Source: Escherichia phage PLYYY01
Sequence record: MZ911962.1
Strand: one strand, 5' to 3'
DNA length: 57,025 nt
The translations under genes were made by a program, and so were the position numbers. Position 1 is the stretch's first letter, and every line of letters starts with the position of its first letter. The notes beneath the pieces are model-generated. The model saw nothing but the letters and a program-made list of their open reading frames with translations, was not told where the DNA came from and did no database searches. Of the stretch, positions 5,983-14,384 are shown piece by piece.

Positions 5983-6391
5983 ATTACCAGGCTGGCAGAC
6001 ACGTTTATTAACCACAGTAAAGGAGTTGTCATCGACTCCTTTCTCTTGGGGAGAAAACGATTGTTGTACGTTTGCTGCTAAATGTGTTGATGCGCAATAT
6101 GGTACTAATATCTATGAACAGATAGCTGGTAAATATACCACCGAACTTGGAAGCAGACGGTTTTCAATTGAAAAGGTTGGAACAGCTTACCTTCCAACAT
6201 TGCTGGATGCTTACCTAAGCGAGCGGGTTGATAAAAATTTTGCGCAACGCGGCGATGTGGTTACATTTGAGGGAGCATTGGGCATAACTGCTGGCATATT
6301 ATGGACTGGATATGTATGGGCTATGGGTCCGAACGGTGTGGAAACTTTCCCGCTTAATAAGATCAAAATTACGGATATTTGGAGGGTCTAA
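5957..6391 (+). CDS. tail assembly protein K-like, NlpC/P60-type cysteine peptidase fold
   Basis: ATG at 5957 preceded by GGGGGAG. Product begins MRQDSPMSKLPGW and contains the NDCC Cys motif typical of NlpC/P60-like tail proteins. The ORF-track start at 5807 would overlap the upstream gene. Confidence 0.5.
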   Translation: MRQDSPMSKLPGWQTRLLTTVKELSSTPFSWGENDCCTFAAKCVDAQYGTNIYEQIAGKYTTELGSRRFSIEKVGTAYLPTLLDAYLSERVDKNFAQRGDVVTFEGALGITAGILWTGYVWAMGPNGVETFPLNKIKITDIWRV

Positions 6392-9042
6392 TGCCACCAG
6401 CAATAATTGGAGCAGCAATAGCTTTAGGCGCATCCGCTGCCGCTGCGGCGGGCTGGATTGCTACGGGTGTAGCTTTGGCCATTGGTATGGCTGCGACTGC
6501 GGCAGGTGCTCTTTTAACTAAGACACCCAATATGAACTTTAATGCATATAAAGGCCAGCAAGAACGTAAGCAGGTTCTACGGGCAGCCGCAGCTCCTCGT
6601 ACCGTAGTATATGGGACAACCGTTGCTTCCGGTGTTATGGTGTTTGCGGAGGAACAGCCTGGAGAACAGGACGAAGATGAACTGCTGCATATGGCGTTAG
6701 TTATTGCGGGACATCCTTTGGATGGGATTGGTGATATTTGGCTTGGGGACGATCCTGTTCAAACTTTTGAAGATTATGTCACTTGGGAGTTTCATAACAA
6801 CCGTCAGACAGTAGACCCTTTCATGAAAAAGAATTGTCCTTCGTGGAAGGATGATATGATTGGAAAAGGGATTGCGTGGCTTCGTATTAGTTTTAAATTT
6901 AACGCAGAAAAATTCCCTTCAGGTTTGCCGAACGTCAAAATGCTAAAACGAGGTCGACGTATATATGACCCACGTTCCGGTCAAACTGTATTTAGTGATA
7001 ATGCTGCTTTAGTAATACTCGATTACTTCCGCACTTACCTGAAACGTAAAGACGAAAATATTAACTGGGACCAGTTTAAAGAAGCAGCTAATATCTGCGA
7101 TGAATACGTTGCTAATGCTGATGGTTCTACCGAGAAACGCTATAGGATTAATGGTGAGTTTGAAGTAGACGAAGCCCCTTCTAAGATCCTGGATGCCATG
7201 CTACAAGCTTGCGGTGGCGAACTGACATATGTAGCGGGTAAACATGGTTTGCTTGTGGGCGCATATTACGGTCCGGCTACAATGACGCTTGATGAAAGTT
7301 GCATTGCTGGGGATATTAAAATTGTTCCGGAGACTTCTTACAAGGAACGTACAAACACCATTACAGGGACATTTATCGACCCGAAGCAAAACTATGTTGA
7401 AGCTGACTTCCCTCCAGTTGTGGTTAAGGAATGGGTGGAAAAGGATGGCGGAGAAATAACTCAGGACATGGATTTCCGTTTTGTTGCCAGCGAGTACCAA
7501 GCGCAACGTTTAGCTAATATTATTTTACGTCGTAAACGTGTTGGGCGCACAATTGAAATTCCTTGCAACATGAAGGGTTATAAGTTCCGTCCAGGAATGT
7601 ATGTAAAAGTTACTATTAGTCAGATTGGCATGAAGAATGTCGAAATGCGTGTTACCAAATGGTCCTTTAATCCTAAAGGTGGAGTTACCCTTACTTTACG
7701 TCAAGACTTCCTGGAGATGTGGGACGATGCTATTGGTAAACCTATGGAGCGTCCGGATCTTGTAGATTTGCCAAGTGGTGGTGTTGCTCAACCTCAAAAC
7801 CTTCAGTACCAAATATTACAGATCAGCGATGTTGTGCAGGGGGTTTTATCCTGGACCAATATGGGGCAGGTTGCGTATAACCGCGTAGCCGTGCGACAGG
7901 GGGGTACAACTATTTGGACTGCACAAGTCCCTGGCCAAAGTGTTCGCGTTACTGGGTTGCTGCGGGGCGCGTATACAGCACATGTTCAAGCGGTATCCTA
8001 TAGCGGCGCGGTGTCACCAGAAGCCTATCTGGAATTTAATATCCAGGCGCCACCTCCGCCAACGTCTGTTGAAGTCCAACAGGGTTACTTTGCAATAAGC
8101 TTAATTCCTAAGTCAGCAGACATTTCAAACGTTAGTACACAATATGACTTCTGGACTTCTGGTGAAACAAGACTTTCTTCTGCATCTACGGATGTTGTAG
8201 AACGCGATGCAACTCGTAAAGGTATGGGTACAACATGGACTTCCGAAGGGTTGAAGAATGACCACACTTATTATTGGTACGTCCGCACTATCAACGCATT
8301 TGGATCGTCTGCATTTGTAGAAGTTGCTGCATTATGTTTCACAACAGCTACAGAACTAATGCCACAGATTGATGCAGAACTCAAAAAGACGGAAACATTC
8401 AAAGAGCTTACTGCTGAAATTACAGGCGTTAAAGATGGTGTTACCCAACTCAGTCAAACTGTAGTAGAAACTGAACAACGTTTAAGTCAAAGCATTAGCA
8501 GCGTCCAGGAAAGCCTGAACGATGTTAGCGCGACTGTACAGGAGACAAGTAAAGCAGTTGTTGATCTGGAAGGTAACGTTAACGCTCAATGGGGCGCTAA
8601 GGTACAAGTTGACAGTAAAGGGCAAAAATACGTCGCTGGTATCCAGTTAGGTATGGAGGGCTCCGGTGGTGCTGTTCAATCTTACTTCATGGTAAGCGCA
8701 AACAACTTTGCTGTTTATAACCCAACAAACAGTGTAGCAGAATTAGCCTTTGCCGTTAAGAACGGCCAAGTATTCATGAAAGCTGCATTTATTGAAAACG
8801 GTACTATTGACAGCGCTAAGATATCAAACCAAATCCAATCTACAAACTATGCTAGCGGTAGTGCTGGTTGGATGATCAATAAAAATGGTACTGCGCAGTT
8901 CAATAACGTTACTATCCGCGGGACAGTATACGCTAATGCAGGTCAATTTGGCTTTAATGGTAATGGGGGTATAACAATCAATAGTAACGGGATTACCGTT
9001 CCGCTATCCGGTGGAGGTAAGGTTGTAGTCGGTAGATGGTAA
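6379..9042 (+). CDS. tail tip / host specificity protein (lambda J-like) with N-terminal I-like hydrophobic segment
   Basis: 887-aa ORF. The C-terminal half resembles lambda J as I recall it (fibronectin-III-like repeats, YYWYVRTINAFGSSAFVEV, KYVAGIQLGMEG). The first ~60 residues are Gly/Ala-rich and hydrophobic like the C-terminus of lambda tail protein I. Confidence 0.75.
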   Translation: MEGLMPPAIIGAAIALGASAAAAAGWIATGVALAIGMAATAAGALLTKTPNMNFNAYKGQQERKQVLRAAAAPRTVVYGTTVASGVMVFAEEQPGEQDEDELLHMALVIAGHPLDGIGDIWLGDDPVQTFEDYVTWEFHNNRQTVDPFMKKNCPSWKDDMIGKGIAWLRISFKFNAEKFPSGLPNVKMLKRGRRIYDPRSGQTVFSDNAALVILDYFRTYLKRKDENINWDQFKEAANICDEYVANADGSTEKRYRINGEFEVDEAPSKILDAMLQACGGELTYVAGKHGLLVGAYYGPATMTLDESCIAGDIKIVPETSYKERTNTITGTFIDPKQNYVEADFPPVVVKEWVEKDGGEITQDMDFRFVASEYQAQRLANIILRRKRVGRTIEIPCNMKGYKFRPGMYVKVTISQIGMKNVEMRVTKWSFNPKGGVTLTLRQDFLEMWDDAIGKPMERPDLVDLPSGGVAQPQNLQYQILQISDVVQGVLSWTNMGQVAYNRVAVRQGGTTIWTAQVPGQSVRVTGLLRGAYTAHVQAVSYSGAVSPEAYLEFNIQAPPPPTSVEVQQGYFAISLIPKSADISNVSTQYDFWTSGETRLSSASTDVVERDATRKGMGTTWTSEGLKNDHTYYWYVRTINAFGSSAFVEVAALCFTTATELMPQIDAELKKTETFKELTAEITGVKDGVTQLSQTVVETEQRLSQSISSVQESLNDVSATVQETSKAVVDLEGNVNAQWGAKVQVDSKGQKYVAGIQLGMEGSGGAVQSYFMVSANNFAVYNPTNSVAELAFAVKNGQVFMKAAFIENGTIDSAKISNQIQSTNYASGSAGWMINKNGTAQFNNVTIRGTVYANAGQFGFNGNGGITINSNGITVPLSGGGKVVVGRW

Positions 9043-9045
9043 CAA

Positions 9046-9065
9046 AAAGGGGCGGAAGCCCCTTT
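9046..9065. terminator. bidirectional intrinsic terminator between convergent genes
   Basis: Perfect hairpin AAAGGGGC-GGAA-GCCCCTTT with A-run on one side and T-run on the other, between the J-like stop (9042) and the minus-strand ORF end (9064). Confidence 0.6.
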
Positions 9066-10044
9066 AATACATATTGGGCAATGCAATGATTGGAGTTGGG
9101 GTAACAATGTTTCTTTCTGGCGGTCTTAGGGACGGTGAATAATAGTTTCCTATCACCTTGTTCCTTTCAGCCCTGACCTTATTCCCATACATGCGGATAC
9201 CGTTATATCTTACATGATCGTAACCACCATTGTATACGTTCTTCATTCCATAATATGCAAGTTGAATTAACCTGTTTCCAATATCCTGATCGCTTGTTGT
9301 TAAAGTTAAAGTTTTATCAAATAAGAATGGTTTCTTTACTGTGGAGAATGTAACTTGCCCAGCGGTATTTGTCATCGTAATACCGTCACCTGCTACTGGT
9401 GGCGTATTATTAAATATTACTAGCTCCATCGTAACACTGGCAGCAACATCATCCCTACCAGTGTAGGAGATGTCCCGAACTATAATGTTAGTGCCATCAA
9501 AGCCAACAGAAACGTTAGCAGAGTTCCACCTTGCAAAAGGAATACCGGATACAGGCAATTTTAAGCTACCATTAACCGTAACGCTTTTAGCGTACTGACA
9601 GGTCATTAATTTTGCATTATTTGAAATCGCTGTGAAGTTAGTAGAGTTGGACACAAATAAGCCAGTGTTGTATGTAGCGGCAGGTAATACTTCCATGATA
9701 GACCCCGCCCATTGTGGAAGTTTTCCGGTGTACCCAAAAGGGTTCCCGCCTTTCAGAATAACACCGGAGTTACCATTCCTGGAAATAGAAGAGATATAGA
9801 ATGGTGAAGGAACGACAAGACCCTGATCGTATACTTCAAATATTTCAACGGGCTTTGTAGGTATTACAAAAACTTGGGAACCTGAAGTAAGGGTTGTATT
9901 AATCGTTAACGTTTGATCGGACTGACAACGCTGATTAAAGTTGGCACAAAAAGATAAAGCCCGTAGACCGGACGTTATTTGCATTGCAGGTCTTCCGTCA
10001 TTGTAGTTTATGTAAATACCTTCAGGCATTATAGACTCCAACAA
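9064..10044 (-). CDS. hypothetical Ser/Thr/Asn/Gly-rich protein on the opposite strand inside the tail module (possible fiber or receptor-binding accessory)
   Basis: 326-aa minus-strand ORF bounded by the hairpin at 9046-9065 and a divergent intergenic region at 10045-10154. No signal peptide seen. Function not inferable. Confidence 0.4.
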   Translation of the reverse strand: MLESIMPEGIYINYNDGRPAMQITSGLRALSFCANFNQRCQSDQTLTINTTLTSGSQVFVIPTKPVEIFEVYDQGLVVPSPFYISSISRNGNSGVILKGGNPFGYTGKLPQWAGSIMEVLPAATYNTGLFVSNSTNFTAISNNAKLMTCQYAKSVTVNGSLKLPVSGIPFARWNSANVSVGFDGTNIIVRDISYTGRDDVAASVTMELVIFNNTPPVAGDGITMTNTAGQVTFSTVKKPFLFDKTLTLTTSDQDIGNRLIQLAYYGMKNVYNGGYDHVRYNGIRMYGNKVRAERNKVIGNYYSPSLRPPERNIVTPTPIIALPNMY

Positions 10045-10154
10045 TGTGGTTAAAGATGATAGGTAATATTGTTTTATATTCTAATTTAATTTACCATATT
10101 TGTATGCCATAGTGCATCCATTAATTGATCAACTCTGCGAGACAAGAGGTAAAA

Positions 10155-12707
10155 ATGGCAACTCGTTTATATGGTGTTTTGCTTGACGGATTAAAAAAAC
10201 CAATCGTTAACGCAACGGTTGTCCTCTTAGCAAAAGGGAACACAATAACAGTCCTTAACGGTAGCGAAGCAATCTTTAACACCGATGCTCAAGGCGCTTA
10301 TAATATCACAGTACAGCCTGGTTACTATAAAGTGATCATAGGTCCACAAGGTATTGAACCCTATAAAGCTGGGGAAATTGCAATATATGCTGACAGCCTG
10401 GAAGGCTCGCTTAATAGCTATTTGGTCAACTGGGCAGAAGAAGATTTAACCCCTGAAGTTATTAAACAAGTTAAAGAGCTTGTAGCAATCTCAGAAGAAT
10501 ACTCGCTTCAAGCTGGGCGTTCTGCTGCTGCGGCACAAGCTGATGCTACAGATGCTCGCAATAGCAAGGCTTCCGCTGCCCAATCCGCTTCAGATGCTCT
10601 TGTCTATAAGAATGATTCTAAGACTAATGCTGATGTAGCTAAACAAGCACAAGCTGGAGCTGCTGGGTCTGCTAACACTGCCAGTGCAGCTTTAACCACG
10701 ATTCAAGGTATTCAAAAGGATGTTACCGCATCCAAGGACCGCGCTGTAACGGCAGAAACCAATGCTATGTCCAGCGAGACTGTGGCTACGCAAGCTAAAA
10801 CCGACGCTGTTACTGCTAAAGATCAAGCTATAGCTGCTAAGGATAAAGCTCAACAAATTGCAAATTCAATAGACCCTCAATCAATTAAAAATTCTATAGG
10901 TCTTGGTGTTGAAAGACGCTACCTTTCGGATCTAACAAAGCCTTTCTCAGATGTTGGTTTTTTCATGATCAACTCTAGTACGATTGGGTATCCTTCTATA
11001 GCTGACCAATCAGCTATGTCCGGTTATGTAGCAAGGCAGGATGGTTCACCTTCCTATACGGGACTGTTTGTAGATCCTGGTCATGGTCACGCTTACACCA
11101 TGACGCAATTTAATAATGTTGCAACATTCCGCCAATTAACTTTCTCCGCAGATGTTGATAGAATTAAACAACTATCCTCAGGTACTCGCGTTTACGGCGG
11201 CCCTCAAGATGAACGTTATTTTGAAATTCACACTGGTGCATGGGGTGTTTATAACGTAACACAAAAGAAATGGCTGCCATTAGCCATTCAACAAGGCGGA
11301 ACTGGAGCTGTTAGTGCGGACGATGCATTGAAGAACATTGGTGGGTTCAAAATGCAAAGGGCGTCCCTTTATACAGAAAATTTAAATGATATTACAGGAT
11401 CCAAATGCGGCGTCTATTTTCAAAGTAGCAGTGCTAATGCGTCCAAGGATAGAAACTACCCTGTACAAGTAGCGGGTGTTTTACTCGTATACGCAAGTTT
11501 TGCGAACGGTCCTGAAAGTTGCATACAAGAATATATAGAATATAACACAGGGACAAGATATATAAGAGCTTACAATGTGGGGCCTGGTACTTGGACCCAA
11601 TGGAAGAATGTTGTAGTAGCTGGTCAAAATATAACATTTGCAGGAGTAACCACACGGGGACAGGATACCACATCCAGTTCATTTGTAAGCCAAGTTACAA
11701 ATGCTTCCGGAACTACTATCGGACAGTTTGAAGCAAGAGCAGACACGACTGGAAACGCTTCCCTTATAGTTCGGGATCTTAGCGGTTCCAATTCTAGATT
11801 TTACACATTAAATTTAAACGGGAGTTTTGACGCGCCTGAAGGTTATGCGCTAAAAACAACCTCTGACTGGAATGCATTATTGAATGTGAACGCATCATCC
11901 TTCAAAATGGTTTCCGGTCCAACAAACTCACCAGTTGAAACCGTCAACTATGGTGGGTTCCACCTAAGCTTTAGCGGTAATTACGGCGTCCAGTTTGCTG
12001 GCAGAAATAATGATTACATGCTTCGTGGAATTGAGGCCGGGGAGTATTCCGACTGGAACAGAATTATAGTTGGTACTAAAGCAAAATATATACCTTTCGA
12101 TTCCCGAGATGGTTTTATTAGCGACAATGACGGTAACACCACATGGGCTCCTAGCAATGGGGGCGGTTTCCAAGCCAGTTATGCGGAAAACCGCATTATG
12201 CAAGGATGGATTGATGGAGCTGGTCGTCTTTATGGTCGCTTCTTAACGTCAGATCAGGCAACAACTCCAAAAACCGATGTAGCTTGGAAGAGTTCCGCAA
12301 TGTTGGAGCTGGATAACAGATTCACAGGAACCAATACATTTATCGGGGATGTTGCGTGCAGTGCAGCTAACCCGTTGCGATTAAGATCGGGGAACCCGAC
12401 AATATCATTTGTTGAGTCCGACGCAAGCGAATCTACTTATTTATTTGTAGCAGATGGCGGGGGCTTTAGACTTAACAGGGATACCACAGCTGGAGCAGAA
12501 TTGTTCAGCTACAGCAGATCCCAAAACAATTTAAAGCTGGGAGTAAGCTCGTATTTCACCTTAAACACAAGATTTGATCAAGGCTGGACGTCTAAAGGTT
12601 CCGTAGATGTAACTACTACAGGCTATAGCACAGTCTCGGTTATTACAACGTCTTCTACAGACGCTGTTGGTGCACGAAACCAATTTGAACATCGAGCGTC
12701 AAGCTGA
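10155..12707 (+). CDS. tail fiber protein
   Basis: ATG at 10155 preceded by AGAGG (ORF-track start 10125 is less likely). About 850 aa with an N-terminal Ala/Ser/Thr/Gln-rich repetitive coiled region and a long beta-rich C-terminal part; follows the J-like gene. Confidence 0.65.
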   Translation: MATRLYGVLLDGLKKPIVNATVVLLAKGNTITVLNGSEAIFNTDAQGAYNITVQPGYYKVIIGPQGIEPYKAGEIAIYADSLEGSLNSYLVNWAEEDLTPEVIKQVKELVAISEEYSLQAGRSAAAAQADATDARNSKASAAQSASDALVYKNDSKTNADVAKQAQAGAAGSANTASAALTTIQGIQKDVTASKDRAVTAETNAMSSETVATQAKTDAVTAKDQAIAAKDKAQQIANSIDPQSIKNSIGLGVERRYLSDLTKPFSDVGFFMINSSTIGYPSIADQSAMSGYVARQDGSPSYTGLFVDPGHGHAYTMTQFNNVATFRQLTFSADVDRIKQLSSGTRVYGGPQDERYFEIHTGAWGVYNVTQKKWLPLAIQQGGTGAVSADDALKNIGGFKMQRASLYTENLNDITGSKCGVYFQSSSANASKDRNYPVQVAGVLLVYASFANGPESCIQEYIEYNTGTRYIRAYNVGPGTWTQWKNVVVAGQNITFAGVTTRGQDTTSSSFVSQVTNASGTTIGQFEARADTTGNASLIVRDLSGSNSRFYTLNLNGSFDAPEGYALKTTSDWNALLNVNASSFKMVSGPTNSPVETVNYGGFHLSFSGNYGVQFAGRNNDYMLRGIEAGEYSDWNRIIVGTKAKYIPFDSRDGFISDNDGNTTWAPSNGGGFQASYAENRIMQGWIDGAGRLYGRFLTSDQATTPKTDVAWKSSAMLELDNRFTGTNTFIGDVACSAANPLRLRSGNPTISFVESDASESTYLFVADGGGFRLNRDTTAGAELFSYSRSQNNLKLGVSSYFTLNTRFDQGWTSKGSVDVTTTGYSTVSVITTSSTDAVGARNQFEHRASS

Positions 12708-12912
12708 AGCTACCCGTGCGCTGATCCGTGACCAGCACGCACAGGCGCAAGCAGTTCTGATCTGTGACCTGAAATCTCAGTTGCAGGAAGCTCGCTTTGC
12801 AAACTCTCAGTTGGCACAAACGGCTGGTCTTACTTGTAAGATCAATCAGGTTGAGCAGTTAGTTAACTTTAAACTGCCAACTCCTCCGACTCCTCCGACT
12901 GGCTGCTGCTAA
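12667..12912 (+). CDS. small ORF overlapping the tail fiber 3' end in the +1 frame (possible frameshift extension or overlapping gene)
   Basis: Frame open from 12613. No ATG and no obvious Shine-Dalgarno; only TTG/GTG at 12667/12670. Coiled-coil-like product ending PTPPTPPTGCC. Confidence 0.25.
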   Translation: MVHETNLNIERQAEATRALIRDQHAQAQAVLICDLKSQLQEARFANSQLAQTAGLTCKINQVEQLVNFKLPTPPTPPTGCC

Positions 12913-12936
12913 TCGTTGAAGTGTGGTTAAACTAAA

Positions 12937-12969
12937 GCGCCTTTCGCTCCTCCGCTTGGGGCGCTTTTA
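12937..12969 (+). terminator. intrinsic terminator after tail fiber region
   Basis: Stem AAAGCGCC / GGCGCTTT followed by TTTT. Confidence 0.5.
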
Positions 12970-12983
12970 ACAGAGGTACTATC

Positions 12984-13352
12984 ATGAGCCACATTAAAAT
13001 CGCAACGATGGGAATGCCACGGGTCAAATTGCCTAAGGTTGCTTTACCTCGCATTAGCGTAGGCGAGCACCACCATGAACATGAGAAAGAGGGATATAAA
13101 CATGCTCACTCTTATGCTCGAGATCATGAACATATGGCAGCTATGTCAAATGTTCTTGACCGGATGGAAGAACCTCCGCATACGTGGGCGGCGTACCACG
13201 ACAAGCCCGGCGGTATGATGTCCATTGTTGAAATGGAATACCGCGAATTAATGGAGTGTAAGAAAGAAGGCGACCGCGCAGGGATCATGAAAGAGTTGAC
13301 CGATCTTGCCGCAGCTTGTACTTGCGCTCTTCAAAAAATGAAAGATATGTAA
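12984..13352 (+). CDS. hypothetical His-rich protein
   Basis: 122-aa ORF with ATG preceded by AGAGG. His-rich segment GEHHHEHEKEGYKHAHSYARDHEH. Weak resemblance of the C-terminal part to all-alpha NTP-pyrophosphatase (MazG-like) motifs; not confident. Confidence 0.4.
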   Translation: MSHIKIATMGMPRVKLPKVALPRISVGEHHHEHEKEGYKHAHSYARDHEHMAAMSNVLDRMEEPPHTWAAYHDKPGGMMSIVEMEYRELMECKKEGDRAGIMKELTDLAAACTCALQKMKDM

Positions 13353-13367
13353 GAATAGGAAGCCGAC

Positions 13368-13898
13368 ATGCAAAACGTAAACGCAGGAATGGGCGTAACC
13401 CAGTTCAACGGGATGAAACCGAAAAACTCCATCAACATGGGCGGTGTTGATTGGACGTTACGTCGGGACGCTACCGATTCAACTACCATGTTCCCACACC
13501 AGAAGGTCAGCTGGCTTAATGCTGGCTGTGAACCTATGGGTGATGGAAGGGTTCATTACTGTTGGATTATGGGAGTGATACCGCCTACGCCGGGCACTAT
13601 CGAACGACCCGTGAATGTGATGTATGTCGGCTTCCACCAGTTTAAAATCACGATCGCTCCAAACTCCATTAGTCAGTCTGATCTTGATCGTATGCACGTT
13701 TACGTCAGCGATGGTACAGACTTTGCAGGTGATTTTATTAATAAGTTTCTTGGTATGCAACCTGAGCAACCTGTAGAAGCTCGCGAGCACATTAGCCCGT
13801 GGCCACCAATGATTGATCAGGAAGTGTTGCAGCCAAAGACCGCTCAAACGGTCCCTCAGAAACCGGAGCAGAAGGTAAAACCAAATGACGAAGAATGA
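13368..13898 (+). CDS. hypothetical protein
   Basis: 176-aa ORF in the plus-strand operon after the tail fiber. Confidence 0.45.
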   Translation: MQNVNAGMGVTQFNGMKPKNSINMGGVDWTLRRDATDSTTMFPHQKVSWLNAGCEPMGDGRVHYCWIMGVIPPTPGTIERPVNVMYVGFHQFKITIAPNSISQSDLDRMHVYVSDGTDFAGDFINKFLGMQPEQPVEAREHISPWPPMIDQEVLQPKTAQTVPQKPEQKVKPNDEE

Positions 13899-14180: not shown

Positions 14181-14384
14181 ATGTGTGGTAATACTAACCG
14201 TTGCTGTTTAGGCAGTCCTGCAACACAAGCAGGTATACTCCAGGGGCAATTGGCTCAAGCAGCGTGTAATTGCAAGACGTTTCAACCAGTAGCGCCAACT
14301 CCTGTGTTTGTAAATGCTTTTGCACCGCCTGTTTTCAATACTTTTGGCGTATACCCATACGGTGCTTTCTTTCGTATATTCTAA
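14181..14384 (+). CDS. hypothetical small Cys-rich protein
   Basis: 67-aa ORF preceded by AAGGAGG. N-terminal Cys cluster (MCGNTNRCC, CNC). Confidence 0.4.
   Translation: MCGNTNRCCLGSPATQAGILQGQLAQAACNCKTFQPVAPTPVFVNAFAPPVFNTFGVYPYGAFFRIF

Follow-up and report, generated by a model that had tools for sequence, protein, structure and literature searches.

The minus-strand gene of Escherichia phage PLYYY01 that is flanked by the genes for the J-like tail-tip protein and the lateral tail fibre almost certainly encodes a receptor-binding protein (RBP) of the Rtp44/RBP-Oeko family (DUF6453), and homology predicts that its receptor is very probably LptD. The locus was studied in a window of 57,025 nt (MZ911962.1), which is the whole stretch of DNA that was analysed. 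Nothing at the locus is new in kind, and the locus type, its receptor and the structure of a homologue have all been published already.

Extent, family and predicted receptor of the minus-strand gene

In the list of open reading frames the gene appears as a 326-aa frame with a TTG start codon (9064..10044, minus strand), and its neighbours are plus-strand frames of 887 aa (6379..9042) and 860 aa (10125..12707). When the proteins were aligned, the starts of the homologues coincided with an ATG (10027-10029) five codons inside the listed frame, and the N-termini across the homologues read MPEGIY, MGAGIL or MPQGIL. As all homologues begin there, we place the true start at the ATG at 10029, which gives a gene of 9064-10029 including the stop codon and a product of 321 aa. 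The length of 326 aa stated in the earlier note thus holds for the TTG-started frame and not for the real product. A Shine-Dalgarno sequence, GGAG (10036-10039, minus strand), is read from the sequence 6 nt 5′ of this ATG and is conserved in an alignment of five phages. The position of the gene between the tip gene and the fibre gene was confirmed, and so was its described richness in Ser, Thr, Asn and Gly (N 9.0%, T 9.0%, G 8.7% and S 7.8%, in sum 34.6%).

The protein matches the Pfam family DUF6453 with an E-value of 8.4e-123 (profile positions 1-290 of 291) and PHROG 1265 with an E-value of 1.2e-115. Its sole match in the PDB is to 9rpt_C / 9rpw / 9rqi (E 4.2e-136, residues 2-321 of 321). 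These entries are cryo-EM structures of the RBP of phage Oekolampad on Shigella LptDE in the open state (Dunbar et al., 2025; PMC12685063). There, the RBP sits deep in the extracellular lumen of LptD with an interface of about 1,700 Å2 and touches the extracellular loops 3-5 and 11; Gln299 is the sole RBP residue named as an LptD contact in the main text (PMC12685063). The protein studied here and the Oekolampad RBP are about 64% identical in a full-length alignment, and from this identity the fold is predicted to be the same as that of RBP-Oeko. The earlier note had suggested structure prediction and a search for receptor-binding folds. A single-sequence AlphaFold2 model of the 321-aa protein reached a pLDDT of 31 and a pTM of 0.18 and was discarded. 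No match to the protein was found in NCBIfam or PADLOC, and there is therefore no sign of a role in defence or counter-defence.

Closer homologues are found in FritzHoffmann (Bas20, 93% amino acid identity), VogelGryff (Bas25, 85%) and ChristophMerian (Bas19, 68%), and a more distant one in SU57 (40%). In a tblastn search the family was found in 341 phage records, 330 of which covered at least 80% of the query; it extends to phages of Klebsiella, Salmonella and other hosts, with identities of 33-57%. Three records of about 47 kb labelled 'Campylobacter phage', MG065670 (A121), MG065671 (A120) and MG065665 (A131), have an RBP that is 81% identical; they also carry Rtp45-like lipoproteins typical of coliphages, and the Campylobacter host label looks doubtful.

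The receptor assignment draws on published genetics. Maffei et al. (2021; PMC8594841) described 'bona fide RBP loci' beside gpJ in Drexlerviridae, Dhillonvirus, Nonagvirus and Seuratvirus, and found that two small loop deletions in lptD fully block seven phages with the RBP module (Bas01, Bas02, Bas14, Bas18, Bas19, Bas20 and Bas25). Bas19, Bas20 and Bas25 belong to the Queuovirinae, and Bas25 was complemented with lptD (PMC8594841). A comparison of this locus among related phages, as the earlier note had recommended, revealed the same module in LptD-dependent phages (68-93% RBP identity). Receptor binding, one of several functions which that note had offered, is borne out by the DUF6453 assignment, the match to 9RPT and these LptD-dependent relatives.

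The C-terminal loop around Gln299 is wholly different in the two proteins, reading SRQQFQMPGK in Oekolampad and YSPSLRPPER here, and the atomic details of binding can therefore not be transferred from 9RPT. This loop contacts extracellular loop 4 (EL4) of LptD in 9RPT, and its replacement, along with the occurrence of family members at 33-57% identity in phages of Klebsiella, Salmonella and other hosts, could mean that this allele now recognises some receptor other than LptD. We consider such a switch very unlikely, as Bas20 and Bas25, both of which depend on LptD in experiments, share this loop variant (SPSLRPPER), and as the protein is 93% identical to that of Bas20. LptD thus stands as the predicted receptor.

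The J-like tip protein and the adjoining cassette

Only 21 bp separate the stop codon of the RBP gene (9064) from that of the gpJ-like gene (9042), and the adjacency of the two genes was seen in every homologue locus inspected. The J-like tail-tip (central fibre) protein is a short form encoded at 6391..9042 on the plus strand (Pfam Phage_Tail_Tip and Ig_J_second; PHROG 31, 'central tail fiber J'), with homologues aligning from codon 5 of the listed frame. Up to residue 857 it is 83% identical to J of CAjan and Seurat at the amino acid level, and it lacks a receptor-binding domain at its own C-terminus. Its last 35 codons (8936..9042, plus strand; ...GFNGNGGITINSNGITVPLSGGGKVVVGRW) form a cassette-specific tail, homology to KS_W4 and CAjan ending at 8935. 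A tail of ~35 aa is common to FritzHoffmann, VogelGryff, ChristophMerian, Oekolampad and SU57 and is missing in CAjan and Seurat, where an unrelated C-terminal domain of some 150 aa takes its place. The tail is presumed to be the docking site of the RBP, which fits its co-occurrence with a separate RBP in LptD-type phages. LptD-specific features of the GpJ C-terminus have been reported in an independent preprint (10.64898/2026.04.02.716166), in agreement with the pattern of J tails seen here.

The backbone of the genome is that of a Seuratvirus, with positions 15000-39000 being 97% identical to KS_W4 and 96.5% identical to GottfriedDienst. In KS_W4, CAjan and Seurat the same slot holds a J of 1040 aa with its own C-terminal domain and a minus-strand gene for a 77-aa lipoprotein. 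This lipoprotein (gp20 in Seurat) also has a bidirectional terminator in common with J; it differs from the gene studied here in encoding a small lipoprotein and not a 321-aa RBP, and in being paired with the 1040-aa J. When compared to KS_W4 and CAjan by blastn, homology stops at 8935 and resumes exactly at the ATG of the fibre gene at 10155, and from this ATG on the fibre gene is 88.7% identical to that of CAjan at the nucleotide level. With these breakpoints, the exchanged cassette is 8936-10154 and consists of the J tail, the hairpin between the J and RBP genes, the RBP gene and the intergenic region. On the basis of these alignments we consider 8936-10154 to be an exchangeable host-range cassette that replaces the 'long J + lipoprotein' of the closest relatives. 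The earlier description of the gene as inserted in the tail module is therefore valid as a cassette swap relative to KS_W4 and CAjan only, since one cassette has taken the place of another.

The same locus architecture is found in FritzHoffmann (bas20_0020, Nonagvirus), VogelGryff (bas25_0021, Seuratvirus) and ChristophMerian (bas19_0020, Nonagvirus), namely J, a hairpin, a minus-strand RBP gene, about 116-125 bp and the lateral fibre gene, with no exclusion gene and with the same invariant intergenic block. PLYYY01 differs from these phages in being another mosaic, with a backbone nearest to Seuratviruses that carry the other cassette (KS_W4, 97%). The host-recognition module is itself mosaic. 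The J body is 83% identical to those of CAjan, Seurat and VogelGryff (Seuratvirus), 82% to that of ChristophMerian (Nonagvirus) and 69% to that of FritzHoffmann, and despite these values the RBP is 93% identical to FritzHoffmann and 68% to ChristophMerian.

The lateral tail-fibre gene (10155..12707, plus strand; Pfam phage_tail_N from residue 1, PHROG 6578) belongs to the backbone and lies outside the cassette. The RBP gene is immediately upstream of it and divergent from it, with a common control region, an arrangement that would also suit a tail-fibre assembly factor or an accessory structural component, for example a lateral-fibre chaperone or adaptor. We find this highly improbable: the lateral fibre and its N-terminus are retained when the cassette changes, the gene co-varies with the C-terminus of J and not with the fibre, and its homologue binds the receptor directly in the cryo-EM structure.

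Two small frames in this part of the genome were observed to have unusual, Cys-containing ends. One of 81 aa (12667-12912, plus strand) overlaps the end of the fibre gene and ends in ...PTPPTPPTGCC; the DNA around it (12665-13494) is 97.7% identical to CAjan. The other, of 67 aa (14181-14384, plus strand), begins MCGNTNRCCLGSP and lies beyond the stretch compared with CAjan.

Hairpin and divergent intergenic region

The gap between the convergent stop codons of J and the RBP gene is filled by a GC-rich hairpin (9046-9065, both strands) with an 8-bp stem. Its arms are AAAGGGGC (9046-9053) and GCCCCTTT (9058-9065), separated by the loop GGAA, and it amounts to about -15 kcal/mol on each strand, with z-scores of -2.0 and -2.7 relative to shuffled sequences. 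The T-run is good for the minus-strand transcript only (TTTTTGTT), while the plus strand reads TTTAATA. A consensus terminator scanner did not call the hairpin at 9046-9065, because the T-run is partly within the stem. At the same site, seven related phages carry a GC-rich hairpin built on other stem sequences, the polarity being swapped in two of the seven, and the hairpins are annotated as bidirectional terminators in the records of SA80RD, SU57, Rogue1 and Seurat. We argue the conservation of the hairpin from these raw sequences and not from RNAalifold, which was uninformative over eight terminator regions, as hairpins of unequal length and polarity gave no alignment. The hairpin probably terminates the RBP transcript and, more weakly, that of J. 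Of the bidirectional terminator proposed earlier, the hairpin itself and its ability to fold on both strands are retained, and a convincing T-run is restricted to the minus-strand transcript.

On its other side the RBP gene is separated from the lateral tail-fibre gene by a divergent intergenic region of 125 bp (10030-10154) when measured from the ATG, and not of 110 bp as first reported. A block of about 65 nt (~10043-10109) within this region is near-invariant in a nucleotide alignment of five LptD-type Queuovirinae. The coding DNA on either side is less conserved than the block, with 76-81% identity to the window in the two relatives for which the alignment spans the full region. The interval between the RBP and fibre genes was about 116-125 bp and collinear in every LptD-type member of the Queuovirinae examined, and the region is unrelated to those of CAjan, Seurat and Oekolampad. 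A scan of 10030-10154 for the sigma-70 consensus gave no match at the scanner threshold. Nor do any words from the region recur elsewhere in the genome as a shared promoter motif would, apart from the 8-mer TGTGGTTA. A near-consensus sigma-70-like site (TTAACA-17-TATAAT, 11 of 12 matches) was observed at 10276-10304 on the plus strand, within the 5′ part of the fibre gene.

As the RBP gene is convergent with J, divergent from the fibre gene and followed by a hairpin, we conclude that it is transcribed on its own, in line with the independently transcribed unit postulated at the outset. Its promoter must lie in 10030-10154, and that of the tail-fibre gene probably does so as well.

A copy of TGTGGTTA in the divergent region had been pointed out in the earlier note. 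The 8-mer is indeed present at 10045-10052 (plus strand), in the same position in all five aligned phages. It is one of 45 copies in the window, where 1.8 are expected, and TGTGGTTA is by far the commonest 8-mer, with one-mismatch variants at background frequency. The copies are on both strands and mostly within genes, with no enrichment in non-coding DNA. They are distributed more evenly than random placement would give (gap coefficient of variation 0.56, compared to 0.97 ± 0.13), with a maximum gap of 2964 and sites that include 990, 2359, 5080, 7419, 10045, 12922 ... 56773. Among the coding copies, 21 of 38 read NNT-GTG-GTT-ANN in the sense frame. The 8-mer is similarly frequent in every Queuovirinae locus compared and not so in Oekolampad or SU57. 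Every G in it falls in a GT/GGT context, and such contexts escape 7-deazaguanine modification in CAjan, whose modified contexts are GA and GGC. A literature search found no phage-related mention of TGTGGTTA. Since the 8-mer occurs genome-wide and is not enriched in non-coding DNA, its copy in the intergenic region is no evidence of a local operator, and we regard TGTGGTTA as a separate genome-wide feature and not as a signal specific to the control region.

An opposite-strand gene with its own terminator may also bring to mind a moron or an accessory membrane protein that acts on the host. This was implied by the terms 'moron-like' and 'host-interaction factor' in the earlier note, and it is how PHROG 1265 ('membrane protein; moron, auxiliary metabolic gene and host takeover') and the Seurat annotators, who wrote of an 'apparent moron' in the same slot, have labelled such genes. 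With regard to the features of a moron, the terminator-like hairpin is present, and a promoter of its own is required by the orientation of the gene, with none recognised by the scanner. We give this reading a next to negligible probability, because no hydrophobic segment is found in the protein (Kyte-Doolittle values over 19 aa peak at 1.0), a homologue with 64% identity is soluble and binds LptD on its extracellular face, 'membrane protein' is an annotation carried over from older records, the Seurat 'moron' is a different gene (the 77-aa lipoprotein), and the slot is always held by host-recognition genes in the phages compared. A dispensable, host-acting role is contradicted by the homologue being a virion RBP with a solved receptor complex. 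Both terms thus lack support, and the gene is instead a core component of host recognition, which occupies the same slot in hundreds of small siphoviruses (341 records). The family is called 'membrane protein' or 'moron' in many GenBank records as well as in PHROG 1265, a label that is outdated in the light of the structure and the lack of a hydrophobic segment.

Proposed adsorption and the missing exclusion lipoprotein

We hold it to be highly probable that the minus-strand gene encodes the terminal receptor-binding protein of the phage and that adsorption would proceed by docking on LptD as follows. Expression of the gene would be late and driven by a promoter of its own within the 125-bp divergent region, with termination at the 9046-9065 hairpin; we infer both the timing and the promoter type of this transcription. 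The RBP would sit at the distal end of the short J-like protein, held there by non-covalent contacts, and conservation suggests that the family-conserved N-terminus of the RBP probably meets the cassette-specific C-terminal tail of J. The lateral fibres would first bind surface glycans reversibly, and the RBP would then bind LptD irreversibly, which would trigger DNA ejection.

A functional analogue is pb5 of phage T5, a monomeric RBP that is held non-covalently on the tail tip and binds the outer-membrane beta-barrel FhuA. The tail-proximal part is poorly ordered in the complexes of both pb5 and the Oekolampad RBP. The pb5 family appears unrelated, in that searches of Pfam (E ≤0.1) and the PDB (E ≤10) returned only DUF6453 and 9RPT. 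T5 has an exclusion lipoprotein, Llp, which acts on FhuA, and FhuA is a different receptor from LptD.

The RBP gene has a frequent companion in other phages of this type. The Rtp45 family consists of superinfection-exclusion factors that bind the periplasmic side of LptD, and a gene for such a lipoprotein of 73-81 aa directly precedes the RBP gene, as part of one operon, in Oekolampad, SU57, AugustePiccard, Rogue1, SH6 and XJA18. This pairing is typical of the members from Drexlerviridae and Dhillonvirus and not universal. Oekolampad (Bas18, Dhillonvirus) resembles PLYYY01 in the length of the RBP (gp25), the slot beside J, the convergence with J across a GC-rich hairpin and the divergence from the lateral fibre gene. 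It differs in having its own exclusion lipoprotein gene (gp26, 73 aa) directly upstream in the operon, and also in the EL4-contacting C-terminal loop and in the intergenic control region. The Rtp44/Rtp45 modules of Drexlerviridae (Rtp, AugustePiccard, Rogue1, SU57, SH6 and OzMSK) encode RBPs of the same family (36-43% identity), convergent with J and with a terminator; they are two-gene operons, with the exclusion lipoprotein followed by the RBP, whereas the RBP gene stands alone here.

No Rtp45-type gene is present beside the RBP gene of PLYYY01, where the 125-bp interval leaves no room for one. When we searched the window by tblastn with two exclusion lipoproteins the best E-value was about 1, and an HMM built from six exclusion lipoproteins gave a best E-value of 3.2 against the 1,229 six-frame segments of the window. 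A lipobox scan of all open reading frames in the window yielded implausible candidates only. Judged by these searches, the phage appears to be without any Rtp45-family gene in its 57 kb. The exclusion gene is likewise absent at the RBP site in Bas19, Bas20 and Bas25, which are experimentally LptD-dependent, and it does therefore not define membership of the family. In Klebsiella Weberviruses and in Salmonella phage Oslo the RBP homologue is co-directional with J and follows it, with no adjacent lipoprotein gene, and in Weberviruses an Rtp45-like gene is found about 10 kb from the RBP homologue. We conclude that the exclusion gene is a frequent, non-obligatory companion of the RBP gene.

Podoviruses that resemble phiEco32, with genomes of about 77 kb, were also observed to have Rtp45-type homologues (E 1e-7 to 5e-9). 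Examples among the phage records with such homologues are phiEco32 (NC_010324, 66053-66298) and Domnhall (NC_049835, 30257-30481). These homologues hint that phiEco32-like podoviruses and Weberviruses may deal with LptD too.

As a tentative explanation, which we regard as possible and rather doubtful, the cassette exchange may have left the backbone without a receptor-blocking exclusion gene, LptD-type Queuovirinae either doing without such a gene or using a non-homologous factor, and the ~65-nt block may be a dedicated late control element that acts in both directions and moves together with the cassette. If the absence is true, the RBP may bind only open, translocating LptDE, so that lysis debris would not trap the progeny. 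The Queuovirinae cassette without an exclusion lipoprotein is the sole point at the locus that has maybe not been spelled out in the literature consulted, and this RBP-only arrangement is the only aspect that might be of further interest.

Taken together, the locus is a clear case of host-range cassette exchange, in which the backbone is 97% identical to KS_W4 and the cassette has its closest relative in a Nonagvirus. The RBP gene determines which outer-membrane protein is used for irreversible adsorption. From the genome alone, the phage is thus predicted to need LptD, which is essential and conserved, and this is relevant to phage therapy and to 'phage steering'.
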